NCBI GenBank assembly: GCA_017608705.1
Contig: JAFCFJ010000008.1
Location: 465 to 64,464, forward strand
Length of the DNA stretch: 64,000 nucleotides
DNA from: Candidatus Pacearchaeota archaeon
Lineage (GTDB): Archaea; Nanobdellota; Nanobdellia; Pacearchaeales; GW2011-AR1
Reading direction: 5' to 3'
Each line of letters begins with the position of its first letter. The stretch's first letter is position 1. Positions 7,444 to 50,283 of the stretch are shown piece by piece. Both the position numbers and the translations under genes were made by a program. The notes under the pieces are model-generated. The model was given only the letters and a program-made list of their open reading frames with translations. It searched no databases and was not told where the DNA came from.

Positions 7444-7926
7444 CTAGTCCTTAAGAAAAATGCTATGCTCTTCATACAGCGGAAATCTCTTTAGCCTGTC
7501 CCCTATTTCGAACAAATGCGGATAGATGGCGCTGGCTTGCTCTGGGCTGAAACCAAGCTCTTCAAGCACCTTGATGAAGTATTCATGCGGAATAGTTTCT
7601 TCAATCTGGACTACAAGATAGCTTGCTGTTTTTGTTTTCTCATTCTTAAGCATCTCATCAAGAATTTTGCTTTCTTTAGGGTAATTTTCTCTGAATTTAG
7701 CTATTGCACTTGCCTGTGCTGTTTGGTGATGAACACGCTTTCTGACTACTCTGATTTTTATTCCGTCGGTTTCCATCTTTCTCTTTACTATTTCAGCAAG
7801 AGATCTAGCTCTGTTTTTGACATTTGTGTAAAGTTTGTTACTTAGCGTTTCTGATGTAGCTTTGAATGTGTTGCCTACAGCCAATAACAATGCTATTTCT
7901 CTCGCATCTTTCGTCTCTTTCTCCAT
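7444..7926 (-). CDS. Hypothetical protein
   Basis: 160-aa ORF with no overlap on a better gene. No motif recognised. Confidence 0.4.
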   Translation of the reverse strand: MEKETKDAREIALLLAVGNTFKATSETLSNKLYTNVKNRARSLAEIVKRKMETDGIKIRVVRKRVHHQTAQASAIAKFRENYPKESKILDEMLKNEKTKTASYLVVQIEETIPHEYFIKVLEELGFSPEQASAIYPHLFEIGDRLKRFPLYEEHSIFLKD

Positions 7927-7996
7927 GCTTACATAATGCTGTGATTGTATAAAAATCTACCGACAAGTGAATAGTGAAATTATCGTGACAAATGAT

Positions 7997-8560
7997 TCAT
8001 TCGAGAAATGGCAATACTCTTACTTCCTCTATATCCTGGCCTATATGAAGCGTGTCGATCTCTATGGCTTCGTTTTCGAATAATTTCCTTATCTCCTCTA
8101 TAGCCTCTCTAACTTCGTGTTCGCCTTTATGGAAAAAGTTGAGAATACAGTGTGGCTTGTGTAAGTTGATCATTAGGCTGTTTATGTTCATTGATTTTTT
8201 GGCAAACTCTCTTATTTTTCTCTTGTTTTTTTCAGAGAACGTTCTGAAATTTATGAGAATATGCGTAATAAAGTAGCCTAGAGCAGACATATTGAATTGT
8301 ATTCTGTTTCCTAAGATAACCTTTTCTGCTTTCAGTTTTTTCAGTCTGTAGTGGGCAAGTTCTGCTGAGATACCAAGTTTTGTTGCGATATCTATAAGTT
8401 TTGTTCTTGCATCATCAGCCAGAATTTTCAGGATTCCTAAATCAATCTTGTCTAACTTTGCCTTTTTCCTTGTCTCTGGCGACACGACTATGTAGTCTTC
8501 CTTGCCTTGGTAGTTGAAGAACTTGAGAGGGTAAACCTCAATAAACTGGGGTTTTATCAA
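7997..8560 (-). CDS. lrp: Lrp/AsnC-family transcriptional regulator (HTH plus RAM domain). The intact C-terminal module of a tandem Lrp.
   Basis: HTH LDKIDLGILKILADDARTKLIDIATKLGISAELAHYRLKKL, then a RAM-like domain. There is no ATG near the N-terminus. The track start is a TTG, and a GTG at VVSPETRKKAK is also possible. The reading frame continues upstream into a decayed second Lrp module. Confidence 0.75.
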   Translation of the reverse strand: MIKPQFIEVYPLKFFNYQGKEDYIVVSPETRKKAKLDKIDLGILKILADDARTKLIDIATKLGISAELAHYRLKKLKAEKVILGNRIQFNMSALGYFITHILINFRTFSEKNKRKIREFAKKSMNINSLMINLHKPHCILNFFHKGEHEVREAIEEIRKLFENEAIEIDTLHIGQDIEEVRVLPFLE

Positions 8561-8923
8561 GAGGTAGTCTGTGATAAAACAATCCTCGTTTTCAAAAAGC
8601 CTGCTTATGAATTCGTTAAGTTGCTTCTCACTTTTGAATATACATTCTAGCCATAGATCATATTTTCCATAGACTTTTCCGTAACTTTTGGCAAATCTTC
8701 AGAAAATTTTTGCGCCATGCTTGGCTTTTCAAATTTCAGAAAGAGAGCAGCATAGCAATTATAGCCGAGCTTGCTCCAGTCCACAAGAGGGAAGAATTTT
8801 CTTATAAGTCCTTCTTTAAGATATTTTTTTATTCTGTATTCAACCTGGTTTCTCGATAGTTTTGTAGCCTTTGCTATGATAAAGATAGCACAATAGTCTT
8901 ATGTCTGTTTCTTTTAGTTTCAT
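8561..8923 (-). pseudogene. Degenerate N-terminal Lrp/AsnC module (HTH plus RAM) with two frameshifts, in frame with the downstream Lrp
   Basis: ATG at 8921-8923 gives MKLKETDIRLLCYLYHSKG, then stop. A +1 frame gives AIFIIAKATKLSRNQVEYRIKKYLKEGLIRKFFPLVDWSKLGYNCYAALFLKFEKPSMAQKFSEDLPKVTEKS. A third frame gives YGKVYGKYDLWLECIFKSEKQLNEFISRLFENEDCFITDYLLIKPQF, which runs into the 7997-8560 ORF. Confidence 0.55.
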
Positions 8924-9031
8924 TTTAACCTGAAATTTTAGATATATTTAAATTTTTCTATTTTAATTTTAATATTTTAGTAATTTTTTGAAGAAAAATT
9001 TAGATACTTCTTTGGGCTCATTCGTAGCAAG

Positions 9032-9247
9032 ATGGAAACCAAAAAATACCAGATTGAGGATATCACACCTGAAGAATACAGATGTGCAGTAGGAGCTTGC
9101 CAAGTAATCTATGAAGTGCTGAATGAGGATAAGCTAGTTATAGTAGGGAAGAGGGCAGATATCAGTGAGCTCGAAGGAAGAATTAATGAGGATGAGGCAG
9201 CAGTGGTTATAGATAAGGAGTTGATTTACAAAGCTCTTCGGGGGTAA
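9032..9247 (+). CDS. Small hypothetical protein (71 aa)
   Basis: Stand-alone ORF preceded by an AT-rich promoter-like region. No motif recognised. Confidence 0.35.
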   Translation: METKKYQIEDITPEEYRCAVGACQVIYEVLNEDKLVIVGKRADISELEGRINEDEAAVVIDKELIYKALRG

Positions 9248-9300
9248 ACAAGAATTCTTGCTGTGAGAAAACTTATATATCTTGGCAGTTATCGTAGGAG

Positions 9301-12131: not shown

Positions 12132-12203
12132 GGGGCTGTGGGCTAGTGGTTAGGCTTCCGGCTTAGGGAGCCGGCGACCCCGGTTCAAATCCGGGCAGCC
12201 CCA
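12132..12203 (+). tRNA. tRNA-Pro paralog whose canonical fold gives an unusual anticodon AGG (A34)
   Basis: GGGGCTGTGGGCTAGTGGTTAGGCTTCCGGCTTAGGGAGCCGGCGACCCCGGTTCAAATCCGGGCAGCCCCA. Anticodon stem CCGGC/GCCGG with loop TTAGGGA. Acceptor and T-arm are identical to the tRNA-Pro(CGG) at 50788. Confidence 0.7.
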
Positions 12204-17123: not shown

Positions 17124-18464
17124 ATGAAACACAGGATAGAGAGTGATGGGGAGGGCAATGCAAAGAGCAAGGGGAAGGATGATGCCAGGAGGAAGGAAGC
17201 AAAACCCGGCGACAAAGTATGCGTTATAACACCGAAAGAAGAGATCGAGGGCTTGCTTCTCGAGAGTTTCGAGCCTGGCATAACTCTTGTCAAGCTTCCA
17301 TCTGGCTACAATATCGGGCTAAGGAATGAAGATATACTTGAGATCAAAGTTCTTGAGGGGCGAGAGAAGCGAGAGGAAAAAATCGAAAAGTTGAGTCGCA
17401 GGAAAGGTTTGGCTAATGTAGCTATGATCGCTACAGGTGGCACAATCTCATCGAGACTTGATCCAGCTACAGGTGGAGTTAAATGGCTGACCTCACCGCA
17501 AGAACTGATAAGGCTTTTTCCGGAAATTGCAGAGAGTGTTAATATTGTTAGCATAGAGAGCCCGTTCAGGCTTGCATCAGAGAATATGTCGCCTGATGAA
17601 TGGAAAGTTCTGGCTGAAAAAACCGCTTTATTGCTTAATAAGCAAGATGTTGATGGCGTGATCATTACGCATGGAACAGATTTTTTGCATTACAGCTCTG
17701 CAGCTCTTTCGTTCATGCTTCGTAATCTTAACAAACCCGTCGTCTTTACATATGCGCAAAGGAGTATAGATAGAGGGAGTTCTGACGCTAAGCTTAACCT
17801 ATTATGCTCGGCAAGAGTTGCATGCAGTAATATTGCCGAGGTTGTGTTGGTTGGTCATGCGACTCTTTCAGATGATTATTGTTATGCAATCTTTGGCACC
17901 AAAGCAAGAAAAATGCATTCTTCACGGCGGGACGCATTTCAAAGCATTAATGCTCAGCCTCTTGCAAGGGTATGGCCTGACAAGCTTGAGATTTTACAAG
18001 CTTACAGAAAGAAAGATGTGAGCAAAGAGGTTAAGGCTGATACCTCGTTTTGTAAGAAAATAGCTCTGGTTAAATTTTACCCAGGACAAAAGCCAGACAT
18101 TCTTGAGTATTATTTTGCTGAGGGCTATCGTGGTGTAGTTATCGAGGGTAGTGGGCTTGGTCATGTTGCGTCGAGCGAGGTTAAGCATAGTTGGTTGCCA
18201 GCAATACGCAAGCTGGTCAGGGATGGTGTGGTTGTATGTATGACAACGCAAACAATTTATGGCAGGGTTGATCCTTATGTGTATAGTCCTGGTCGCGAAC
18301 TGCTCAAGGCTGGTGTGCTTTACCTTAATGACATGCTTCCAGAGACAGCATTTGTCAAGCTGGGCTGGGTTCTTGGTCATAAGCAATGGCGCACTCCTGA
18401 GAAGGCAAGAGAAATGATGCTTCATAATTTTGCGCATGAGTTTAGTGATAGGCTTGTTCCCTGA
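17124..18464 (+). CDS. gatD: Glu-tRNA(Gln) amidotransferase subunit D (asparaginase-like)
   Basis: 446 aa. GatD N-terminal domain (KVCVITPKEEIEGLLLE), then an L-asparaginase fold with IATGGTISS and HGTDF motifs. Confidence 0.9.
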   Translation: MKHRIESDGEGNAKSKGKDDARRKEAKPGDKVCVITPKEEIEGLLLESFEPGITLVKLPSGYNIGLRNEDILEIKVLEGREKREEKIEKLSRRKGLANVAMIATGGTISSRLDPATGGVKWLTSPQELIRLFPEIAESVNIVSIESPFRLASENMSPDEWKVLAEKTALLLNKQDVDGVIITHGTDFLHYSSAALSFMLRNLNKPVVFTYAQRSIDRGSSDAKLNLLCSARVACSNIAEVVLVGHATLSDDYCYAIFGTKARKMHSSRRDAFQSINAQPLARVWPDKLEILQAYRKKDVSKEVKADTSFCKKIALVKFYPGQKPDILEYYFAEGYRGVVIEGSGLGHVASSEVKHSWLPAIRKLVRDGVVVCMTTQTIYGRVDPYVYSPGRELLKAGVLYLNDMLPETAFVKLGWVLGHKQWRTPEKAREMMLHNFAHEFSDRLVP

Positions 18465-18471
18465 TTCTGGG

Positions 18472-18984
18472 TCACAATCTAAGCTTTGTCAAATAGAAGC
18501 CAGAGCTGTGTGGAATCATGAGCAAGCGCATGCCAAGAATATCGATCTCTTTTCCGCATGGCATATATTTTATACCTTTCTTTTCGAGCTGTTTTTTATT
18601 TCTTACAATTAGCATTCCGAGGGCTTCATATTCGGCATCTATCAATTCAATTCCTCTCCTCAGTCTGAAATATGGATGGTAATCCACAATTATCGTTTCG
18701 TCTTCACTTTGAATTTCGAGCCATGAGTGCAGGACAGCTTTATGTGTTGCTGCGAGATATTCTTTCAAGTACTTTTCTGCTTCCTTTTGTTTTTGGCATA
18801 TTATGTGCAAGAGAGAAGAGAGCTTGTATATCGTTATGCCATCTTTCACTTCCACATTTTCATAGCCAGCTCTTTTCAAATATGGCTGTAGTATTCTTGC
18901 AGCCTCGTGACATCTCAACCCATCATCCAGAGATGCTGTAGCCTTCTTGACCAGATTTTCCAATCTTTCATATTTCTTTGCCAT
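18472..18984 (-). CDS. Hypothetical protein (170 aa)
   Basis: Clean ORF convergent with gatD. No motif recognised. Confidence 0.4.
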   Translation of the reverse strand: MAKKYERLENLVKKATASLDDGLRCHEAARILQPYLKRAGYENVEVKDGITIYKLSSLLHIICQKQKEAEKYLKEYLAATHKAVLHSWLEIQSEDETIIVDYHPYFRLRRGIELIDAEYEALGMLIVRNKKQLEKKGIKYMPCGKEIDILGMRLLMIPHSSGFYLTKLRL

Positions 18985-19027: not shown

Positions 19028-19393
19028 GTGCTGTTTAAAAATATTATGCATGGCAAGAGTATCGCTATCATTATATTTGTGCTTTTCGTGCTTCTTGTGG
19101 TGGGGGTAGTTGCCTTTATGTTTCACCGAGCAGAGCCAGAGAATTTTGAACAACAAATTATTCAGTCAGCCCTCAAGCTTTACAATCAGGCCAAGGCCCA
19201 GGGCATAAATTTTTCGAGCCAGTGTTTGGGCACAATAGAGGTGCAAGGTATAAGCTATGCTGTTGATATCGTGCATGTTCCGCGTAGCCCTATAGATAAT
19301 CTGCCAGAAAATCAATGTAAGGAGTATAGGGAAGGCAAGGTCAGACATTTTATCGAGCTGGATAAAGAAGGCAATGTGGTAAGAATAGTTTAG
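19028..19393 (+). CDS. Small membrane-anchored hypothetical protein
   Basis: N-terminal TM helix IAIIIFVLFVLLVVGVVAF, followed by a ~90-aa soluble domain. Confidence 0.4.
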   Translation: MLFKNIMHGKSIAIIIFVLFVLLVVGVVAFMFHRAEPENFEQQIIQSALKLYNQAKAQGINFSSQCLGTIEVQGISYAVDIVHVPRSPIDNLPENQCKEYREGKVRHFIELDKEGNVVRIV

Positions 19394-19413
19394 TCGTCTG
19401 TAACTTTTAAGTA

Positions 19414-20199
19414 GTGAAAAATAGAAAGATTTATAAATTTGAAATATGTTTGATTATCATGCCTACAAAAGCTTTTGAGGAGCGGTTTTACGGTTGTTTG
19501 TCGAAAAAATGTAAAATATTAAATACGAATTTGGAGGATGCTATATTCGTATTTGATACTAGTGCTTTTGTTTTATTGGATAGGGAGCTAAAGAACAAAT
19601 GCCCTGATTTCCTGGATACTTTCTATACTCAAACTAACAATATATTTATTCCTCGTCCGGTAATAGACGAATTGGTTTACCATAACGGTAGGGGTAAGAG
19701 TAATCCAGGAATTCAAAAGATCCGCGATGATACCTTGGTTTATGTTTGTGGAATAACTGGAACTTCTAGCCACAAAAATCTCGAAAAAGAAATAGAAGCG
19801 GTCTATGACGAAATGTGTAAGATCCATTTTAGCATATGCTTACTTTTGCCTACAATAGCAAAAGAATATGAGAGAAGAAATGTTTCTCATGTCGCCTATC
19901 GCCATAAAACTATCGTCGGGAGATTTGGTGATAGAAAGTCTTTAAGGACAGATATAGAAGTGGTATTTTCCGCATATCTTCTAAAATCTGTGTATCCTGA
20001 TAGGCATGTTTTACTTGTCACAGGCGATCAGCACCTGCTTTGCACAGTTCATCATCTTAATGAGGAGGGCAGATTCAAAAAGAAATATAATGGAGACGAA
20101 GTGAAGATTACTGTGGAGCGTGTTGATATAAAAACATTAGATCCAAATAATCCTTGTCATCAAAATAAATGCTATTTTAAGTTCGAGCGTGATGAATAA
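19414..20199 (+). CDS. PIN-domain nuclease with a large internal insertion (AT-rich islet, gene 1)
   Basis: IFVFDTSAFVLL (first PIN Asp), PVIDEL, TDIEVV, and LLVTGDQHLL (distal PIN Asp motif). GC is visibly lower than the flanks. A more likely start is the internal ATG at MPTKAFEE (~19462). Confidence 0.6.
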   Translation: MKNRKIYKFEICLIIMPTKAFEERFYGCLSKKCKILNTNLEDAIFVFDTSAFVLLDRELKNKCPDFLDTFYTQTNNIFIPRPVIDELVYHNGRGKSNPGIQKIRDDTLVYVCGITGTSSHKNLEKEIEAVYDEMCKIHFSICLLLPTIAKEYERRNVSHVAYRHKTIVGRFGDRKSLRTDIEVVFSAYLLKSVYPDRHVLLVTGDQHLLCTVHHLNEEGRFKKKYNGDEVKITVERVDIKTLDPNNPCHQNKCYFKFERDE

Positions 20200-20202
20200 A
20201 AA

Positions 20203-21093
20203 ATGAGAAAACCAACTCTTGAAGACAAAGTAGAGTTTGTAGATTATGGGAAGATTCCTTATCTAGAGACTTCTCTGGAAATATTAGATAATCCTGTTGT
20301 TATATTTGAGAAGCTTGATGGCTCAAATGTTCAGGTCAGAAAATATGGCGAGAAGGTTTTGCTTGGAACAAGAAGCAATTTTCTGAATGAGAAGAATATA
20401 AGAGCTATATGGATGTGGGATTTTTTAAGATGGGGGAGAAAATACAAAGATATTCTTTCCAGAATTCCGGACAATGTTATTATTTTCGGTGAGTGGGTAG
20501 CAAATCAGCATGTTTTGGATTATGATTGGGACAAGATAAATAAATTCTATTTTATCGATATTGCTTATGTTGGCTCAAATGGTAAGTTAATCTTTTATGA
20601 TTACTCTGAAGCTAAAGATTATCTTTCTTTTTGGGGAATGAACGAAATTATGGAGATTCTTTCTCCGATTGCAAAAGGTAAGTTTTCGTTTGATGAAATA
20701 AAAAAATTAGCTAACCAGAGAAGTCAATTAGTTAAAAGGGAAAAGAATTTACTCTATGATGGGAAGATGGAGGGAGTAGTGATTAAAGATTATATAAACC
20801 AGAGATTCGTTAAGTACCTTAATCCAGAATTTTCAGAGATTAGGATCGAAGAAAATAAAGCACATCGATATTTGAATGAAAATCGATTTAGGAAAGTAGC
20901 AGCCAAAATTTTTGAAAAATACGGAAAGGTTGTTTTGAATGATCTTATTGCGGCTCTTAGAAGTGATATTTATGAAGAAACAGGAGAATGTATCAGTATT
21001 GGGGCTATTCTTGGAGAAATTAGAATAAATGACTGGCATAAGAAGTACGAGAAGAAGTATAATATTCAGAGATGGTACAATCCTCAGATTTAA
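20203..21093 (+). CDS. ATP-dependent RNA ligase, Rnl2-like nucleotidyltransferase (AT-rich islet, gene 2)
   Basis: Motif I at IFEKLDGSNVQV (K37, as for T4 Rnl2 K35). Motif III IIFGEWVANQHVLDY. Motif IIIa YFIDIAYV. Motif IV EGVVIKDY. Motif V FVKYLN. There is no N-terminal OB domain. 296 aa. Starts 4 nt after the PIN gene stop. Confidence 0.65.
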   Translation: MRKPTLEDKVEFVDYGKIPYLETSLEILDNPVVIFEKLDGSNVQVRKYGEKVLLGTRSNFLNEKNIRAIWMWDFLRWGRKYKDILSRIPDNVIIFGEWVANQHVLDYDWDKINKFYFIDIAYVGSNGKLIFYDYSEAKDYLSFWGMNEIMEILSPIAKGKFSFDEIKKLANQRSQLVKREKNLLYDGKMEGVVIKDYINQRFVKYLNPEFSEIRIEENKAHRYLNENRFRKVAAKIFEKYGKVVLNDLIAALRSDIYEETGECISIGAILGEIRINDWHKKYEKKYNIQRWYNPQI

Positions 21094-21117
21094 AAATCTT
21101 AGTTTCTCTTTGTTTTC

Positions 21118-22554
21118 ATGCCAAACATAAAGCTGAAAGCCGGCTTGGAGATACATCAGCAGCTCGATACAGGAAAGCTTTTCTGCCGTTGTAAGAGCAT
21201 TTTACGTAAGGACAAGCCAGATTTTATCGTGACACGCAAGTTGCACGCTGTTCCTGGCGAGACTGGCGAGATCGATGAAGCTGCATTGTTTGAGCATCTC
21301 CGTGACCGAGAGTTTGTATATGAAGGTTACTATGATAACACCTGCCTGGTTGAGCTTGATGAAGAACCGCCGCGTGAAATAAATAAGGAGGCGTTGGAGA
21401 TAGCATTACAAATTGCTTTGTTACTTAACTGCAAGATTCTGCCTGTGACACAGATAATGCGTAAGACAGTGCTTGATGGAAGCAATGTTTCTGGCTTTCA
21501 GCGTACTGTTTTGATAGCTAAGGATGGCTATGTAGAGACAAGCTATGGCAAGATTGGTATCGCTACTATTTGCCTAGAGGAAGATGCGGCAAGAATCGTG
21601 AGGCGTGAGGACAAGCGTGTTGTGTATAGGCTTGACAGGCTTGGCATACCACTTGTGGAGATAGCTACAAAGCCAGAAATAAAATATGCAAGACAGGCGA
21701 GAGAAGTTGCATTGCATATAGGTGAAGTGCTGCGTGCCTGCAAGGTGCGTCGCGGTATTGGAACGATACGGCAGGATGTTAATCTTTCCGTTAATGTTGA
21801 TGGTAAGCAAGGCGCAAGAATAGAGATCAAGGGTGTGCAAGAGCCAAGGCTTATAGAAAAGACAATAGAAACTGAGGTAAGAAGGCAGGTGGAGCTTATC
21901 GCAAAGGGGGAGAGCAAGCCAGAAGTGCGGAAAGCATTGCCGGATGGCACAACAGAATTTCTTAGGCCTTTGCCCGGTGCCGCGAGAATGTACCCAGAGA
22001 CAGACTTGCCATTGTTGAAAATACCTAGAGAGTTAGTAGACAGCATAAGACATGCGCTGCCGAGACTAAAGCATGAGATGAGGCAAGAGCTTGAGAAGCA
22101 AGGCCTGAATAAGGAACTAATTAAGGTGTTGCTTGATAGCGGAAAGCTTGATGATTATAAGGAATTACTGCGTGTGTATAATAAACCAGACTTCGTGGCC
22201 AAGCTCGTGGCTCTCTGGCCACGCGAATTAGCGAGCCAGGCCAGCATTTCAGTAGAGGACGTTGAGAGTAAGATTAATAATGATATCAAAGCAAAATTGC
22301 TCGAGACAGTGAAGCAAGGAAAGCTTGATGAAAGTCTTGTCAAGCAGGTCATGCAGGCTGTGCTTGATGGCAAACCTCTGGAGGAAGCTATGAAAATTGA
22401 AAAGCCAGAAAACCTCGAGGAAGAAATTATGAAGCTTGTTAAGGAAAAGCCAGGTCTTAGCATTAATGCTTACATGGGCCTTATTATGTCAAGATTCAGG
22501 GGAAAGGTTAGTGGCAAGGAAGCTGCAGAAATTCTTAAAAAGATCCTTTCATAG
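21118..22554 (+). CDS. gatE: Glu-tRNA(Gln) amidotransferase subunit E (GatB/GatE family). At 478 aa it is shorter than the ~620-aa GatE from memory.
   Basis: GLEIHQQLDTGKLFCRC, CLVELDEEPP, GAARMYPETDLP (GatE-type, where GatB has ADYRYFPEPDLP), and a C-terminal GatB/YqeY-like tail. It is the partner of gatD, 2.6 kb upstream. Confidence 0.75.
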   Translation: MPNIKLKAGLEIHQQLDTGKLFCRCKSILRKDKPDFIVTRKLHAVPGETGEIDEAALFEHLRDREFVYEGYYDNTCLVELDEEPPREINKEALEIALQIALLLNCKILPVTQIMRKTVLDGSNVSGFQRTVLIAKDGYVETSYGKIGIATICLEEDAARIVRREDKRVVYRLDRLGIPLVEIATKPEIKYARQAREVALHIGEVLRACKVRRGIGTIRQDVNLSVNVDGKQGARIEIKGVQEPRLIEKTIETEVRRQVELIAKGESKPEVRKALPDGTTEFLRPLPGAARMYPETDLPLLKIPRELVDSIRHALPRLKHEMRQELEKQGLNKELIKVLLDSGKLDDYKELLRVYNKPDFVAKLVALWPRELASQASISVEDVESKINNDIKAKLLETVKQGKLDESLVKQVMQAVLDGKPLEEAMKIEKPENLEEEIMKLVKEKPGLSINAYMGLIMSRFRGKVSGKEAAEILKKILS

Positions 22555-22563
22555 GCTTGAAAA

Positions 22564-23904
22564 ATGGCAAAAGAAAAAGCAAGCAAGAAGCACGAGGCAG
22601 AGAGAAGATTCTTTACAGCAGAGATAACTCCAGCTATGGATGGCCAGAGCGTGTTGTTGAAAGGCTGGCTTTACGATTTGCGCGATATAGGCAAAATCAG
22701 ATTTTTGATTTTGCGCGATAAGGAAGGTTTTATACAAGTTACTGCAAAGAAAGGCTTAACGAGTGATGCTGTGCTTGAACTTATGAAAGAAATTCCCAGA
22801 GAGAGCGTTATAGCTGTGCGCGGTGTTGTAAAAAAAAGTGAGCAAGCGCCTGGTGGTGTGGAAATAGTTCCAGAGAGTGTTGAGATTATAAACAAGGCGT
22901 TGGAAGTGCCGCCGATAGATCTTACGGAAAGAAGCAAAACAGATTTGAGCAAGAGGCTGGATTGGCGTTTTCTTGACACGAGGCGCAAGAATATAGCACC
23001 CATCTTCAAGGTTCGCTCCAAAATTTACAAAGCTATCGTAAATTTCTTTGATAGTAAGGGCTTTATCAATATCAACACACCAAAACTGACAACACTTGGC
23101 CTTGAGTCGGGGGCAGAGAGCTTTGCTGTTGAGTACTTCGATAAGAAAGCGTGGCTTGCGCAGAGTCCACAGTTCTATAAACAGATGTTTGTTATCGGCG
23201 GTTTCGAGCGTGTTTATGAGATTGCTCCTGTGTTCCGCGCAGAGAAATCACACACAACAAGACATCTCACGGAATTTACCGGCGTAGATTTTGAGATGGG
23301 CTTTATCGAGAGCGAGCATGATGTTATGGATGTAATTGAGGAGATGATGAAGTATGTGATAGAGAGAGTGAGCAAGGAGGCATCGAGAGAGCTTGAGCAA
23401 CTCAATGTTAAGCTGAAAGTGCCAGATAAGATACCGAGGATAAGCATGAAAGAGGCAAAGGAAATGCTCGCCGAGAGAGGTAAAGAGCTTGACGAGGACG
23501 ATGATCTTGATGCTGAAGCAGAGAAACTTTTATGCGAGATCGTTAAGGAAAAATACAATGAGGAGCTTGTTTTTGTCACATTGTTCCCTTGGAGCAAAAG
23601 ACCTTTTTATCATATGAGGCCAGAAAACAACCCTAATGTGACGAAAAGCTTCGATTTGCTTTGGAACGGTCTCGAGGTCTCGACAGGTTCGCAACGTGAG
23701 CATAGGCTTGAGGTCTTGCGGAAACAAGCAGAGGAAAAAGGTGTGAAACTCGATAGCATTTATGCTGCATTGTTCAAATACGGGGCACCGCCACATGGGG
23801 GTGCAGGCTTCGGGCTTGACAGGCTTACACAATCAATGCTAAGACTTGAGAATGTTCGCGAAGCCCTACTTTTGCCTCGTGACCCTGAGAGAATTAGACC
23901 ATAG
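22564..23904 (+). CDS. aspS: Aspartyl-tRNA synthetase, archaeal type
   Basis: 446 aa. N-terminal OB anticodon-binding domain. Class II motifs FRAE (PVFRAEKSHTTRHLTEFTGVDFEM) and GGAGFGLDRL. Confidence 0.95.
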   Translation: MAKEKASKKHEAERRFFTAEITPAMDGQSVLLKGWLYDLRDIGKIRFLILRDKEGFIQVTAKKGLTSDAVLELMKEIPRESVIAVRGVVKKSEQAPGGVEIVPESVEIINKALEVPPIDLTERSKTDLSKRLDWRFLDTRRKNIAPIFKVRSKIYKAIVNFFDSKGFININTPKLTTLGLESGAESFAVEYFDKKAWLAQSPQFYKQMFVIGGFERVYEIAPVFRAEKSHTTRHLTEFTGVDFEMGFIESEHDVMDVIEEMMKYVIERVSKEASRELEQLNVKLKVPDKIPRISMKEAKEMLAERGKELDEDDDLDAEAEKLLCEIVKEKYNEELVFVTLFPWSKRPFYHMRPENNPNVTKSFDLLWNGLEVSTGSQREHRLEVLRKQAEEKGVKLDSIYAALFKYGAPPHGGAGFGLDRLTQSMLRLENVREALLLPRDPERIRP

Positions 23905-23959: not shown

Positions 23960-24403
23960 ATGAAGGTTAAAGAGGTGATGAAGAAACGCGTTGTATATGT
24001 TAAGCCAGAAGATAATCTACGCAAGGCTATGAAGCTAATGACGAAAAACGGTGTGAGTGGTTTGGCTGTGATAGAAGACAAACGCATCATAGGTGTGCTG
24101 AGCATAAGCGATATTCTCAACGCAACAAGGCTCAAGTTCAGTAAGTCAAGTGATCCACTTTTTGCCTTGCTCGTTGCTACAATAAAGAAAAAGGACATAG
24201 AGAAGAAAATGCGATATCTCGAGAGTTTGAAAGTAGCTGATGTTATGGTAAAAAAGCCGATAACTATAAATGAGGATGAGAATGTAGAAAAAGCGATTGA
24301 AAAAATGTGTAAGGAAGATATTAACAGAGTGTTCGTGGTGAACAAGAGGAATGAGCTTGTTGGTGTTGTGGCAAGAATTGACATAATAAAGGCTCTTGCT
24401 TGA
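23960..24403 (+). CDS. CBS-domain pair protein
   Basis: 147 aa. Two CBS repeats (VMKKRVVYVKPEDNL...GLAVIED, and VMVKKPITINEDENV...RVFVVNK). Confidence 0.8.
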   Translation: MKVKEVMKKRVVYVKPEDNLRKAMKLMTKNGVSGLAVIEDKRIIGVLSISDILNATRLKFSKSSDPLFALLVATIKKKDIEKKMRYLESLKVADVMVKKPITINEDENVEKAIEKMCKEDINRVFVVNKRNELVGVVARIDIIKALA

Positions 24404-26255
24404 AATGGCATCATTGAAGCGCGAGATAGGTTTTGCTGCTCTGCTTTTAATAAGTATTAATGCTGTTATGGGTACCGGGTTATTTTTTCAGCCAGCTATA
24501 GCTGCCAGGATCGCTGGTTTGGCTTCATTGTTTTCATGGATTTTTATCGGGATTGTTGCCTTGCTTATGGCTCACTATCTTGCATGTCTTGCAGGCATGT
24601 TTCCTCGTGCAGGTGGTATCTATGAGTATGTAAAGCAAGCTTTCTCACAGCGTGAAGCCTTTCTTGCTGGGTGGTCTGCTTGGATCGTGGCTAACATAAC
24701 AATTGCCATGCTTATCGTTGGCTCCCTTATGTATGTCATGCCAAATGCAAGCCAGCTTGTCCGCTTGCTCACTGCTTTTTCTTTTGTTGCTTTGTTTAGT
24801 GTTGTGAGCTATTTTGGTATAAGGCAAAGTACAAAGTTAATGCTATTTTTTGGCATAATTACGCTTACAGCCATATTCTTTGTTGTTGTGATAAATTTAC
24901 CTTCTGTTGATTTTTCGCAAGTAAGAAATATTTTCTCAACATCTTTTTCCCGAATTTTCCTTGCTATGTTTTTCATAGTGGAGAGTTTTTTTGGCTGGGA
25001 AACTCTTACATTCTTGGCTGAAGAAATCAAAGGGTCGAGAAAAAACCTTCCGCGTGCTCTTATGATCTCGACAGTTATTGTTGTTTTGATAGCTTGGCTT
25101 TATGTTGCTTCTACTTTACTTAGTATTAATCTCGAAACTTTTTCGTTGCAGAACGCACCCGTTAATTTTGTTGTTGCTCAAAGGCTAGGTGCAAGAATTG
25201 CAAAGCTATTTTCTTTTTTCCTTTTCATACCTTTGGTTGGCACGGCAGCAAGCTGGATTGTTTCCTCGCCTCGCTTACTTTTAGCAATGGCACGCGATAA
25301 TTTGTTTGTTCCTGGCCTCGAGAAAATACATCCTAAGTACAAGACACCATACCGGGCTATTTTGTTTCAGGCGATAGCGTCATGTTTGATCATAGCCTTG
25401 GGTTTTGCTAATTACGTACTTATTTTGCAACTTTTGCTTCCTCTTGCTCTTTTCACTTATTCTTTTGCTCTACTTGCTTTGCTTAAAATAAGGCTGGCTA
25501 GGAACAGAAAATTTGACAAAATAAGGAAGGCGGCAGGACCATCGTTTCTTATTATTTTCTTTTTTACAGTAATTGTATTTTGGCTTTTTTACGAGAACTC
25601 ATGGAGTATTTTCGCTTTGAGCACAGTACTTATTTTGTTGGGCTATCCTGCCTATACTGTTGTCAAGCTTCAGGATTTTAGGTTCAGGGAAAGATTTTTC
25701 GAGCGCATCTCCTTTGTATATCCGGTCTTGAGCAAAATTTTTTACAGCAAAGCTGATGTGGGCATGATGATAGAGAACGCAAGCATAAAATCAAGCGATG
25801 TGGTGCTTGATTATGGTTTTGCTGGCTTGAACATAGATGAGCTGAGCAAAAAACTTAGCAAGGGGATGCTTGTTATCGCTGATGTTTCCATGCGCAGAAT
25901 TGCCGAAGCTATAAGGATTGCGGAAAAAAAGAAGCTCGAGAATGTGTTTTTCATAAAAGAGGACAAGCTATTGGAGCTTGATAATGCCTTCGACTGTATT
26001 CTTTCGATTGGCATTCTTTCATATTACAGGAATCCAGGAGAAATCCTTGAATTTTTCAGAAAAATTGCTAAAAAAGGCGCACGCATTAGCTTGATAGATT
26101 TTGGCCGGAGCTTCATATGGCCAGCCCCACCACAACTTTCTTCGAGAGAAAAGCTGAGGCGTTTGCTCAAAAAAGCAAGTTTTAGCGAGATAAAGATTTT
26201 CGAAAAAAATAAATTTTTTACGCACTATTATTTTGTTAGCGCGGTGGTAAAATGA
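24396..26255 (+). CDS. APC-family amino-acid permease fused to a C-terminal methyltransferase-like (degenerate Rossmann) domain
   Basis: 619 aa. About 12 TM helices at the N-terminus (~430 aa). The C-terminal ~190 aa has VLDYGFAG (motif I-like), IADVSMRR, FDCILSIGILSY, and AKKGARISLIDF. Confidence 0.7.
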   Translation: MLEMASLKREIGFAALLLISINAVMGTGLFFQPAIAARIAGLASLFSWIFIGIVALLMAHYLACLAGMFPRAGGIYEYVKQAFSQREAFLAGWSAWIVANITIAMLIVGSLMYVMPNASQLVRLLTAFSFVALFSVVSYFGIRQSTKLMLFFGIITLTAIFFVVVINLPSVDFSQVRNIFSTSFSRIFLAMFFIVESFFGWETLTFLAEEIKGSRKNLPRALMISTVIVVLIAWLYVASTLLSINLETFSLQNAPVNFVVAQRLGARIAKLFSFFLFIPLVGTAASWIVSSPRLLLAMARDNLFVPGLEKIHPKYKTPYRAILFQAIASCLIIALGFANYVLILQLLLPLALFTYSFALLALLKIRLARNRKFDKIRKAAGPSFLIIFFFTVIVFWLFYENSWSIFALSTVLILLGYPAYTVVKLQDFRFRERFFERISFVYPVLSKIFYSKADVGMMIENASIKSSDVVLDYGFAGLNIDELSKKLSKGMLVIADVSMRRIAEAIRIAEKKKLENVFFIKEDKLLELDNAFDCILSIGILSYYRNPGEILEFFRKIAKKGARISLIDFGRSFIWPAPPQLSSREKLRRLLKKASFSEIKIFEKNKFFTHYYFVSAVVK

Positions 26256-50194: not shown

Positions 50195-50266
50195 GGGCCC
50201 GTCGGCTAGTGGATAGGCCACCCGGCTTCGGACCGGGTAACAGGGGTTCGAATCCTCTCGGGCCCG
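50195..50266 (+). tRNA. tRNA-Arg (anticodon TCG)
   Basis: GGGCCCGTCGGCTAGTGGATAGGCCACCCGGCTTCGGACCGGGTAACAGGGGTTCGAATCCTCTCGGGCCCG. Anticodon loop CTTCGGA. Confidence 0.8.
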
Positions 50267-50283
50267 CTAACAATAAACAGAAA

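Follow-up and report, generated by a model that had tools for sequence, protein, structure and literature searches.

Nucleases are repeatedly found paired with RNA ligases, a theme which is poorly understood. In archaea such pairing is represented by HARP (PIN_5, PF08745/TIGR03875), a protein-only RNase P enzyme whose co-occurrence and co-localisation with the RNA ligase Rnl3 (TIGR01209, Pab1020 type) have been reported from Euryarchaeota as well as from some Sulfolobales and a few bacteria (Matelska 2017, PMC5499597; Seshadri & Gopalan 2025, PMC12153264). The HARP and Rnl3 genes are typically divergent and are co-localised in only one-third of archaeal genomes carrying the two, and the Rnl3 ligase has been reported to circularise C/D-box RNAs (PMC12153264). 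The HARP-Rnl3 link was proposed in 2025 and the function of the pairing has so far been hypothesised only (PMC5499597, PMC12153264). HARP has been reported to be absent from all DPANN archaea (PMC6380272). On a nuclease-ligase pair in DPANN or in association with GatDE, the literature searched, outside the RNA-repair operon survey of Burroughs & Aravind 2016 (NAR 44:8525), yielded nothing relevant.

In this work we have analysed two linked genes encoding a PIN-like protein and an ATP-dependent RNA ligase, located within the window, i.e. the whole 64-kb stretch of DNA under study. We establish the identities of the two genes, the predicted folds of their products, the conservation of the catalytic residues, and the adjacency, genomic position and co-divergence of the pair. 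A preceding inspection of the same DNA, referred to below as the sequence-only reading, had stated that it knew of no described PIN-Rnl2 operon of this architecture in archaea. The association of PIN proteins with RNA ligases is in fact known there from HARP/PIN_5 and Rnl3 (PMC5499597, PMC12153264), but not for the present PIN family and not in DPANN.

The coordinates of the locus are collected in Table 1. Both ORFs are present and as tightly linked as had been claimed: the stop codon of the PIN-like gene (TAA, 20197-20199) is separated by 3 nt from the ATG of the ligase gene at 20203. In the window the ligase stop precedes the gatE start by 24 nt, and 9 nt separate gatE from the AspRS-like gene. 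The profile search placed both gatD and gatE above the NCBIfam equivalog cut-offs. The pair does lie between these two genes, but "wedged" is too strong a word for it, since gatD is not adjacent: the 170-aa minus-strand ORF and the 121-aa membrane-protein ORF, both kept in the nearest relative (L001), intervene. Neither has a family match in Pfam, NCBIfam, PADLOC or PHROGs. The antisense ORF splits gatD from the downstream transcription unit. The PIN-like protein most likely starts at the ATG (19459) and not at the GTG (19414), the public gene call being the 246-aa form. Judged by the known layout of archaeal promoters, TTTATAAA is a putative promoter of a leaderless PIN-ligase transcript which may extend into gatE and aspS. 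A search for tRNA and Rfam RNA genes inside the islet found none.

Table 1 Features of the locus (positions in the window)
Feature	Coordinates	Strand	Remarks
gatD, anchoring the conserved cluster at its upstream end	17124..18464	+	NF003217, 463 bits vs cut-off 310
170-aa ORF, lineage-specific	18472..18984	-	between gatD and the pair; 90% identity over 125 aa to L001 counterpart
Predicted membrane protein, 121 aa, lineage-specific	19028..19393	+	ORF between gatD and the pair; 82% identity to L001 counterpart
Low-GC and divergence island, coextensive with the PIN-like and ligase genes	19400..21117		GC 0.336; identity profile vs L001
TATA-box-like element TTTATAAA	19431..19438	+	~25 nt 5' of ATG 19459; read from sequence
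Predicted PIN-like metallonuclease gene, 246 aa	19459..20199	+	alternative GTG start 19414 gives 261 aa
ATP-dependent RNA ligase gene, 296 aa	20203..21093	+	N-terminal nucleotidyltransferase domain, motif I Lys37; C-terminal helical domain; PF09414
gatE, short 478-aa form	21118..22554	+	NF003107, 498 bits vs cut-off 456, two matched stretches
AspRS-like class II aminoacyl-tRNA synthetase gene	22564..23904	+	ORF; L001 orthologue with tRNA_anti-codon and tRNA-synt_2 domains

The product of the second gene falls within the nucleotidyltransferase superfamily, as the sequence-only reading had proposed. It matches PF09414 RNA_ligase in Pfam with 63.4 bits (cut-off 27) and also PHROG 548 RNA ligase. 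The nucleotidyltransferase motifs (I, III, IIIa, IV, V) comprise EKLDGxN (K37), GE97, F115..D119, E190-GVVIK195 and K204; K37, E97 and E190 were found in all 44 ligase homologues and K204 in 43 of them, with G191 invariant or nearly so. No domain is found upstream of motif I, the claimed lack of an N-terminal OB domain thus being borne out, and the C-terminal domain is all-helical. In the AF2 model (pLDDT 80) helices occupy residues 208-286 after the nucleotidyltransferase domain, and a Foldseek search of the PDB libraries returned full-length T4 Rnl2 as the top ligase match (E 9e-12, 333 aligned columns). When the ligase profile was compared with PDB sequences, the best scores were those of Rnl3 Pab1020 (9.9e-10), Rnl3 of P. 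pacificus (4.6e-7), the Naegleria ligase (6e-7) and T4 Rnl2 (1.2e-4). The Rnl3 model TIGR01209 scored 17.5 bits, far under its cut-off of 136.9, and the motif I lysine is at residue 37 in the window ligase, whereas motif I aligns from about residue 95 in the Pab1020 chain. The architecture is Rnl2-like and the nucleotidyltransferase domain is nearest in sequence to archaeal Rnl3; the assignment to the Rnl2 family therefore stands for motifs, architecture and best-matching fold, but not for sequence. Family members are 255-296 aa long. Related PF09414 ligases are present in viruses. A PIN partner was found beside none of 26 viral relatives, nor beside the PF09414 ligases of Thermofilaceae and bacteria, the upstream gene in one of these loci (L052) encoding an AsnC-type regulator.

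The model supports the view of the upstream protein as a metallonuclease of the PIN fold whose acidic tetrad is intact, in broad agreement with the earlier description as a PIN nuclease. The assignment rests on the predicted alpha/beta/alpha PIN fold and the conserved acidic residues. At the sequence level it is borderline: PIN_4 reached 21.5 bits with the window protein, below the curated Pfam threshold of 21.9, and matched at all in just four of 25 family members. D33, E71 and D165 (246-aa numbering) are invariant, and D190 is present in 44 of 45 distinct members. The HARP protein-only RNase P enzymes headed the matches of the model in the Foldseek search of the PDB libraries, weakly. The family gave no significant sequence match in Pfam, NCBIfam or PDB, and neither single sequences nor 25- and 70-sequence profiles nor consensus sequences linked it to any solved PIN or HARP; PDB PINs were not recovered by the 70-sequence profile. 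PF08745 and TIGR03875 remained without a match at E<=1 (25 members, Pfam) and at E<=10 (the family consensus against Pfam; this consensus plus seven members against NCBIfam), and PHROGs and PADLOC returned nothing for this protein. As judged by these searches the PIN-like family, which is roughly 210-250 aa in length and comprises 176 clusters among 1.84 billion proteins, is a previously unclassified one outside current domain libraries.

An insertion of ~140 aa between the catalytic motifs, reported in the sequence-only reading, was overstated. The 132 residues from D33 to D165 (the first to the third acidic residue) take in the ordinary PIN core, with E71, also conserved, among them. In VapC-type PIN proteins the corresponding spacing is about 90 residues. 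The extra helical segment, located inside residues about 90-141, amounts to roughly 40-50 aa by an estimate using this VapC spacing, and only about 25 aa of it are lineage-specific.

The two genes are not an isolated co-occurrence. Among 48 species-representative ligase loci the PIN-like gene lies directly 5' of the ligase gene in 31, and four more were added by a broader profile (35 of 48); in a survey starting from the PIN-like gene the ligase gene came next in all 15 assessable metagenome loci. The spacing of the two varies between an overlap of 44 nt and a gap of 18 nt, and one copy of the pair per locus was found where both flanks were readable (5 kb on each side). GatE is encoded directly 3' of the pair in 22 of the 27 assessable loci and gatD 5' in 19. 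In most loci the ligase-gatE gaps are between -22 and +54 nt, which implies co-transcription. In the five remaining loci the pair is found by adenylate kinase and Dus, by Cdc6 and DNA ligase, or by other genes, and stays internally adjacent even away from gatDE. The Nanohaloarchaeal copies adjoin a gene with tail-fibre-like domains. The cluster otherwise consists of tRNA-acting enzymes (GatD, GatE, AspRS paralogues and, nearby, ProRS), often with a tRNA-Arg gene at its head. Pnkp-type or other end-healing genes were absent from the gene calls adjoining the pair. The PIN-like protein and the ligase form an obligate pair, which is probably ancestral to, and co-inherited with, the gatD-[PIN]-[ligase]-gatE-aspS cluster of Woesearchaeota/Pacearchaeota-type DPANN. 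Conserved synteny inside one phylum-level lineage could also represent an inherited gene order with no functional link to GatDE.

Pairwise identities of the PIN-like protein and the ligase are strongly correlated (Spearman 0.89), and gatD-PIN (0.73) and gatD-ligase (0.69) correlate no less well than gatD-gatE (0.60). The divergence of the pair tracks that of GatD and GatE, in line with vertical inheritance. Between close Pacearchaeal genomes the cassette shows the same divergence at 4-fold sites as gatD/gatE and a similar amino-acid identity. The dN/dS of the ligase is 0.07, and in the window's lineage the rate of evolution at the protein level is about 3 times higher for the PIN-like protein than for the ligase.

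The low GC content pointed out in the sequence-only reading was confirmed. No other 1.68-kb stretch of the 64 kb has a GC content as low as that of the pair (0.336 vs a mean of 0.414, z = -3.5), and the GC3 values of the PIN-like and ligase genes (0.304 and 0.314; mean 0.402) are the two lowest of 66 ORFs of >=100 aa. Of 32 loci, 30 have a pair with a GC below that of gatD/gatE, so that the dip belongs to the genes themselves. The flanks share 0.90-0.97 nucleotide identity with L001, the PIN-like gene 0.55-0.69 and the ligase gene 0.73-0.86, with a return to 0.96 at the gatE start, and identity at 4-fold sites is 0.42-0.44 in the cassette vs 0.74-0.87 in the flanks. This excess of synonymous divergence has sharp borders and is confined to the window's lineage. 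The PIN insert and the C-terminal extension which are specific to the subfamily occur in L001 too, and genomes of the window type and the L001 type co-occur in one sample. Likely, the cassette at the ancestral site has been swapped for a diverged allele in the window's lineage. L110, a candidate for a third allele, was rejected because it proved to be the window's own genome, differing only by a 38-nt gap. Hyper-divergence combined with odd composition is a behaviour commoner among conflict genes.

In the sequence-only reading the cassette was viewed as a novel islet acquired horizontally. A recent insertion between formerly adjacent gatD and gatE in this genome would agree with a GC and GC3 that are the lowest in the window, the sharp-edged excess divergence from L001 and the carriage of related PF09414 ligases by viruses, but we consider it very improbable. 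The same-order insertion is found in at least 22 other species-level lineages, some of those with the pair in the gatD-gatE gap having GatD and GatE only about 55% identical to those of the window; the window's pair is as far from the others as its GatD and GatE are, pair divergence correlates with that of GatD, the GC dip is repeated across loci, and L001 shares the insert and the extension. Integrase genes, a bordering tRNA gene, direct repeats and other mobile-element hallmarks were sought around the pair, and only short chance repeats were seen. Of the islet signals the sharply bordered synonymous divergence from L001 is real, but no empty site was found, the site being filled in 22 of 27 assessable loci, and the data fit allele replacement at an ancestral site instead of a new acquisition.

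The reading which we prefer, with a confidence that is evenly balanced, is that the two genes constitute a self-contained, co-evolving RNA cut-and-rejoin module, the DPANN counterpart of HARP-Rnl3. The activities of the nuclease and the ligase, the end chemistry, the substrate and a functional tie to GatDE are all inferred. The PIN enzyme, in a metal-dependent reaction, would hydrolyse a phosphodiester bond in a structured RNA to leave a 3'-OH and a 5'-phosphate, while the ligase would adenylylate itself on Lys37, pass the AMP to the RNA 5'-phosphate and close the 3'-OH/5'-phosphate break or circularise the RNA, an end-healing kinase/phosphatase being unnecessary. PIN-type metallonucleases are expected to yield 5'-phosphate and 3'-OH, as is established for the RNase P reaction. 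The analogy with PrrC versus Rnl1/Pnk, drawn in the sequence-only reading, is thus chemically off: the PIN ends are expected to be directly sealable and the module contains no end-healing gene. Because the module is inherited with the gatD-gatE-aspS cluster, its most likely substrates would be tRNAs or other small, structured RNAs that serve translation.

The cassette might instead be a toxin-repair or anti-virus conflict module, in which a VapC-like PIN ribotoxin cuts tRNA or rRNA and the ligase reseals it as an antidote or repairs damage done by an invader, the whole being lodged in the gatD-gatE gap and kept by addiction. Such a role would suit the lowest GC and GC3 of the window, the sharp-bordered synonymous hyper-divergence between genome types sharing one sample, the faster evolution of the PIN-like protein, the occasional relocation of the pair and the tail-fibre-like neighbour of its Nanohaloarchaeal copies, and ideas of nuclease-plus-ligase conflict or toxin-antitoxin systems have been put forward by Matelska et al. 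(PMC5499597) and Seshadri & Gopalan (PMC12153264). We nevertheless find it unlikely. PADLOC gave no match at E<=1 for either protein or for the two small neighbouring ORFs, so that membership of a known anti-phage system is not borne out; a small DNA-binding antitoxin gene, mobility genes and flanking repeats are absent, the PIN-like proteins have about 210-250 aa vs about 130, and a PIN partner is missing from all 26 viral relatives of the ligase. A single copy, in the loci with both flanks readable, at a fixed housekeeping-cluster site across deep divergence and with a vertical signal also speaks against conflict, as do the Pacearchaeal pairs, in which the cassette is conserved like gatD/gatE with no excess divergence. 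The pair could also be a working RNA nuclease-ligase module at a frozen-accident site, unrelated to GatDE, AspRS or tRNA and acting on other RNAs, e.g. in trimming and circularising C/D-box sRNA or rRNA intermediates. The adjacency of the pair away from gatDE, the antisense gene that parts it from gatD in the window and the reported circularisation of C/D-box RNAs by Rnl3 (PMC12153264) are in line with this possibility, which appears rather doubtful in view of the co-transcription implied by the short ligase-gatE gaps in most loci, the tRNA-acting enzymes making up the rest of the cluster and the tRNA-Arg gene often heading it. A more specific proposal, and a distinctly unlikely one, is that in DPANN the PIN-like protein takes the place of HARP, namely as a protein-only tRNA-processing endonuclease with a dedicated ligase, co-expressed with GatD, GatE and AspRS, so that tRNA cutting and resealing or circularisation would be integral to the indirect Gln/Asn-tRNA pathway or to quality control. 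The cut would then be RNase P-like or elsewhere in the tRNA. If true, this would mean that reduced archaea make tRNA cut-and-reseal part of that pathway or of quality control.

Under the preferred reading of an RNA cut-and-rejoin module, the DPANN pair adds a second, independent-looking PIN-ligase case, in a group reported to be free of HARP. Its genetic linkage is much tighter than that of HARP-Rnl3, its nuclease family goes undetected by current domain libraries, and its fixed home is among tRNA-acting enzymes. With about 540 aa in total it offers a small, tractable system for the study of PIN-plus-ligase function, and the unannotated family of about 176 clusters is flagged for curation. The locus also illustrates how two genes of ancient residence, and not a recent import, can lie behind a low-GC "islet".

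With the T4 Pnkp/Rnl1 response to PrrC, Pnkp-Hen1 and Pnkp1-Rnl-Hen1 the pair shares the answering of RNA breakage by an RNA ligase, but those systems mend 2',3'-cyclic-phosphate/5'-OH breaks with a kinase/phosphatase (and Hen1), none of which is encoded in the window module. It differs from VapBC type II toxin-antitoxin systems in having no upstream antitoxin, the upstream neighbour being the 121-aa membrane protein here and gatD elsewhere, in a PIN protein almost twice as long as the roughly 130-aa toxin, in a downstream enzyme (the 255-296-aa ligase) as the partner, and in its fixed, vertically inherited position. The ligase resembles T4 Rnl2 in opening with the nucleotidyltransferase domain, which no other domain precedes and whose motif I lysine lies near residue 35-37, in the C-terminal helical domain and in matching PF09414; unlike T4 Rnl2, which its profile ranks under Rnl3 and the Naegleria ligase, it is cellular, not viral, and has an obligate nuclease partner. 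HARP-Rnl3 likewise couples, in the neighbourhood of tRNA-related genes, an ATP-dependent RNA ligase with a PIN-fold nuclease of roughly 200 aa. In HARP, a homo-oligomer (dodecamer) removing the 5' leader of pre-tRNA, a two-helix "spike" domain is inserted ahead of the helix bearing the later catalytic Asp residues, and the extra helical segment of the window PIN may correspond to it. Rnl3 Pab1020 is the best solved sequence relative of the window ligase, and HARPs lead, weakly, the structural matches of the PIN model. The two systems differ in that the window PIN has no sequence match to PF08745 or TIGR03875 and its family carries D/E/D/D in place of the four Asp of HARP, and in that Rnl3, of roughly 380 aa and four domains, has an N-terminal domain which the shorter window-type ligase lacks. 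The DPANN pair, moreover, is always co-linear and abutting, inside the gatD-gatE cluster.

The sequence-only reading had described an AT-rich two-gene islet between gatD and gatE. Apart from minor corrections, that observation is upheld: no other part of the 64 kb is as poor in GC as this 1.68-kb stretch (0.336 versus 0.414, z = -3.5), and when the 66 ORFs of 100 aa or more are ranked by GC3, its two genes come last. Two starts are available for the PIN-like gene; ATG 19459 was adopted because a TTTATAAA box (19431-19438) lies about 25 nt upstream and the public gene call is also 246 aa, the form to which residue numbers refer. Its stop codon (TAA, 20197-20199) and the ATG of the ligase gene (20203) are separated by 3 nt, and 24 nt separate the ligase stop from the gatE ATG.

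Features of the window and of related loci (L numbers)
Feature	Sequence	Coordinates	Strand	Basis or remark
gatD	window	17124-18464	+	NCBIfam equivalog threshold passed
170-aa ORF	window	18472-18984	-	ORF
121-aa predicted membrane protein	window	19028-19393	+	ORF
PIN-like gene (flagged ORF 1)	window	19414/19459-20199	+	ORF, two candidate starts
PIN C-terminal extension	window	20137-20196		residues ~227-246
ligase gene (flagged ORF 2)	window	20203-21093	+	PF09414 match
gatE	window	21118-22554	+	NCBIfam equivalog threshold passed
AspRS-like gene	window	22564-23904	+	ORF
CBS-domain gene	window	23960-24403
reduced-identity stretch with parts of the amino-acid permease gene	window	24200-25700
second-lowest-GC segment	window	7601-9280		GC 0.354
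tRNA-Pro(AGG)	window	12132-12203		ARAGORN
tRNA-Arg(TCG)	window	50195-50267		distant from the pair
tRNA-Arg(TCG) upstream of gatD	L014	4577-4648	same strand
tRNA-Arg(TCG) upstream of gatD	L016	2774-2846	same strand
tRNA-Arg(TCG) upstream of gatD	L021	2185-2258	same strand
tRNA-Arg(TCG) upstream of gatD	L031	1028-1099	same strand
tRNA-Arg(TCG) upstream of gatD	L035	1995-2068	same strand
tRNA-Arg(TCG) upstream of gatD	L044	151-223	same strand
tRNA-Arg(TCG) upstream of gatD	L066	2572-2645	same strand
tRNA-Arg(TCG) upstream of gatD	L068	1896-1967	same strand
LAGLIDADG-like gene	L008	3540-4679		between ligase and gatE; also L009, L010
LAGLIDADG-like gene	L013	11616-12642		few kb downstream
200-aa ORF, unannotated	L007	5802-6404		between ligase and gatE; no family match
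99-aa ORF, unannotated	L013	7451-7750		between ligase and gatE; no Pfam hit recorded
diverged PIN-ligase pair	L048	3336-8447 (locus)		Nanoanaerosalina
diverged PIN-ligase pair	L046	1184-2784 (locus)		Nanoanaerosalina
RVT_1 gene	L017	526-1602		directly upstream of gatD
PemK-family toxin gene	L017	8174-8503		downstream of aspS

The second product is an RNA ligase, as had been proposed: it scores 63.4 bits against PF09414 (cut-off 27) and contains motifs I (EKLDGSN, K37), III (GE97), IIIa (F115...D119), IV (E190-GVVIK) and V (K204). Residues K37, E97, E190 and G191 are invariant across 44 distinct homologues, and K204 is present in 43. Its assignment to the Rnl2 family stands for the layout, as full-length T4 Rnl2 is the best match to the AlphaFold model (pLDDT 80) and aligns with it over both domains (E 9e-12), but not for the nucleotidyltransferase (NTase) sequence: the family profile ranks Pab1020, an archaeal Rnl3, first (9.9e-10), with P. 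pacificus Rnl3 and the Naegleria ligase next in order and T4 Rnl2 behind them (1.2e-4). The protein nevertheless fails the Rnl3 model TIGR01209 (17.5 versus 136.9 bits) and lacks the N-terminal domain of Rnl3. It is a minimal PF09414 ligase, Rnl2-like in layout and Rnl3-like in NTase sequence.

The PIN-like protein scores 21.5 bits against PIN_4, just under the cut-off of 21.9, and no library gives it a name. Its relatives came to light by way of the loci that encode ligase homologues: in each of L003, L007 and L008 the gene directly 5' of the ligase specifies a protein of 200-245 aa. These three are mutually homologous (E 1e-18 to 1e-21), and the window protein is weakly homologous to them. 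A profile search retrieved 35 proteins from Pacearchaeota and Nanoarchaeota MAGs, all unnamed or labelled only 'hypothetical protein'. When 1.84 billion representatives were searched exhaustively with an HMM, only 176 clusters reached E<=1e-3, all single-domain and of ~195-255 aa. D33, E71, D165 and D190 are invariant in 70 diverse members; among 45 sequences from paired loci the first three are invariant and D190 occurs in 44. The top Foldseek matches of the model, weak and near full length, are HARPs, the PIN_5 protein-only RNase P (7e8k_D, E 7.7e-3; 7e8j_A; 8kd9_L). Predicted fold and active site place the protein in the PIN superfamily, as the profile match places the ligase in PF09414. 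The ~140-aa insertion reported earlier turns out to be ordinary PIN core together with a helical insert of ~40-50 aa (residues ~90-141); ~25 aa of this insert and a Cys/His-containing C-terminal tail are specific to the window lineage. The C-terminal extension, a low-confidence part of the model, carries a conserved P-C-H-Q-N-K-C motif common to the window-type protein and that of L001, the nearest relative, and absent from the rest of the family.

The pairing of the two enzymes also holds. When the ligase alignment was scanned against one genome per GTDB species, 48 loci were found; with local HMMs built for GatD, GatE, AspRS, the PIN-like family and the ligase, the PIN-like gene lies directly 5' of the ligase in 31; with a broader profile, three loci from Nanohaloarchaeota and a fragment at a contig end join them. 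In metagenome loci found from the PIN side, the ligase comes next in all 15 with downstream sequence. Of 27 assessable loci, 22 have gatE as the next gene after the ligase, usually starting -22 to +54 nt from the ligase stop; gatD lies upstream of the pair in 19. On long contigs the called genes likewise run gatD-PIN-ligase-gatE; AspRS paralogues lie further downstream, and ProRS is close by. The two genes remain adjacent even outside this cluster, where the neighbours vary and include adenylate kinase with Dus, Cdc6 with DNA ligase, and genes for a PD-(D/E)XK or a radical SAM protein. No PIN partner was found with the PF09414 ligases of viral contigs (26 loci), Thermofilaceae or bacteria.

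Several further features of these loci were recorded. GatE is short, 478 aa in the window and 474-505 aa in L001, L007, L013, L014, L016 and L017, and aligns to the GatE model (630 positions) as two separate segments, the first of them at model positions 8-265; from the alignment, ~150 residues of canonical GatE seem to be absent, presumably the AspRS-like insertion domain. The contig L110, which comes from a different sample, matches the window exactly across 11.6 kb save for a gap of 38 nt towards the 5' end of gatE (window 21191-21228); the gap shifts the gene call to 441 aa and may reflect either strain variation or an artefact of assembly. Free-standing LAGLIDADG homing-endonuclease-like genes occur in one lineage and in L013. 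In Nanohaloarchaeota (Nanoanaerosalina) MAGs the diverged pair is flanked by an ATP-grasp gene and a 520-aa Peptidase_S74 and bactofilin-like (tail-fibre-like) protein, and may have a viral or proviral context. Reverse-transcriptase and toxin genes accompany the cluster on a groundwater Nanoarchaeota contig (L017). The A at position 34 of the window tRNA-Pro is unusual for an archaeal tRNA.

Recent horizontal acquisition is not borne out. The GC of the pair is below that of gatD/gatE in 30 of 32 loci. Across 22 non-redundant loci mean pairwise identity is 0.61 for GatD, 0.59 for GatE, 0.41 for the ligase and 0.30 for the PIN-like protein, and pairwise identities correlate between PIN and ligase (Spearman 0.89), PIN and GatD (0.73), ligase and GatD (0.69) and GatD and GatE (0.60). 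The window lineage is about equidistant from all others for every gene compared. In close Pacearchaeal genome pairs the 4-fold-site divergence of the cassette equals that of gatD/gatE and amino-acid identities are similar (L017 versus L044: PIN 0.83, ligase 0.82, gatD 0.88, gatE 0.85). At the pair in the window there is neither an integrase gene nor a bordering tRNA, and flanking repeats are lacking. Given the vertical correlations, the recurrent GC dip, the matching divergence and the lack of mobility signs, the pair is an ancient resident of the gatDE cluster.

The term islet can be retained only for the sharp-edged excess divergence of the cassette from L001. GatD and GatE are 92% and 96% identical between the two and flank nucleotide identity is 0.90-0.97, falling to 0.55-0.69 across the PIN gene and 0.73-0.86 across the ligase, and returning to 0.96 exactly at the gatE start. 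Identity at 4-fold degenerate sites is 0.74-0.87 in five flanking genes versus 0.42 (PIN) and 0.44 (ligase), chance being ~0.28; dS is 0.25-0.35 in the flanking genes, 1.4 in the ligase (dN/dS 0.07) and saturated in the PIN gene. Relaxed constraint cannot explain synonymous divergence this high; the history of the cassette is deeper than that of its flanks. The likeliest explanation is that recombination in the conserved flanks swapped the cassette for a diverged allele belonging to its own subfamily. Sample 3300033156 contains both genome types. The same excess keeps alive the rival view that the pair has a conflict-type role. Divergence from L001 is heterogeneous elsewhere in the region too, though milder than in the pair: dS reaches 0.95 in the CBS-domain gene, and parts of the permease gene drop to 0.71-0.77 nucleotide identity.

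Metallonucleases of the PIN type act by hydrolysing RNA; HARP and PRORP catalyse the RNase P reaction, whose products carry 5'-phosphate and 3'-OH ends, and ATP-dependent RNA ligases seal such ends via ligase-AMP and AppRNA intermediates. The PIN-like enzyme would by analogy cut RNA to 5'-phosphate and 3'-OH ends, which the ligase would rejoin by the same intermediates. The T4 and Pnkp-Hen1 repair systems include kinase, phosphatase or Hen1, whereas gene calls of related loci place none of these beside the pair, and the proposed PrrC-type logic fails on this point. The earlier interpretation is partly supported, in its enzymes and their pairing. At least 8 of the scanned loci (6 distinct) have a tRNA-Arg(TCG) gene at the head of the cluster; in many Pacearchaeota-type loci it lies directly upstream of gatD on the same strand, which suggests a tRNA-mRNA co-transcript. 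Since every operon partner works on tRNA and this gene heads the cluster, the most plausible substrate would be tRNA or another small structured RNA.

In the tests run, the pair and its proteins did not qualify as HARP, Rnl3, VapBC or any PADLOC system. The arrangement parallels the HARP-Rnl3 system. Matelska et al. (PMC5499597) observed that PIN_5 proteins occur together with three others: the TIGR01209 ligase, a tRNA methyltransferase and a tRNA synthetase. Rnl3 is found in 89% of HARP-positive genomes, often within 5 kb, and three roles have been proposed for the combination: RNA processing coupled to circularisation, a TA pair, or 5'-adenylation (Seshadri & Gopalan 2025, PMC12153264). No HARP has been found in any DPANN (Daniels et al., PMC6380272). 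Compared with HARP-Rnl3, the pair described here combines a PIN protein from a separate, unclassified family with a ligase of smaller size; its two genes are strictly linked, abut and run in the same direction, and they occupy a fixed place in the gatDE cluster.
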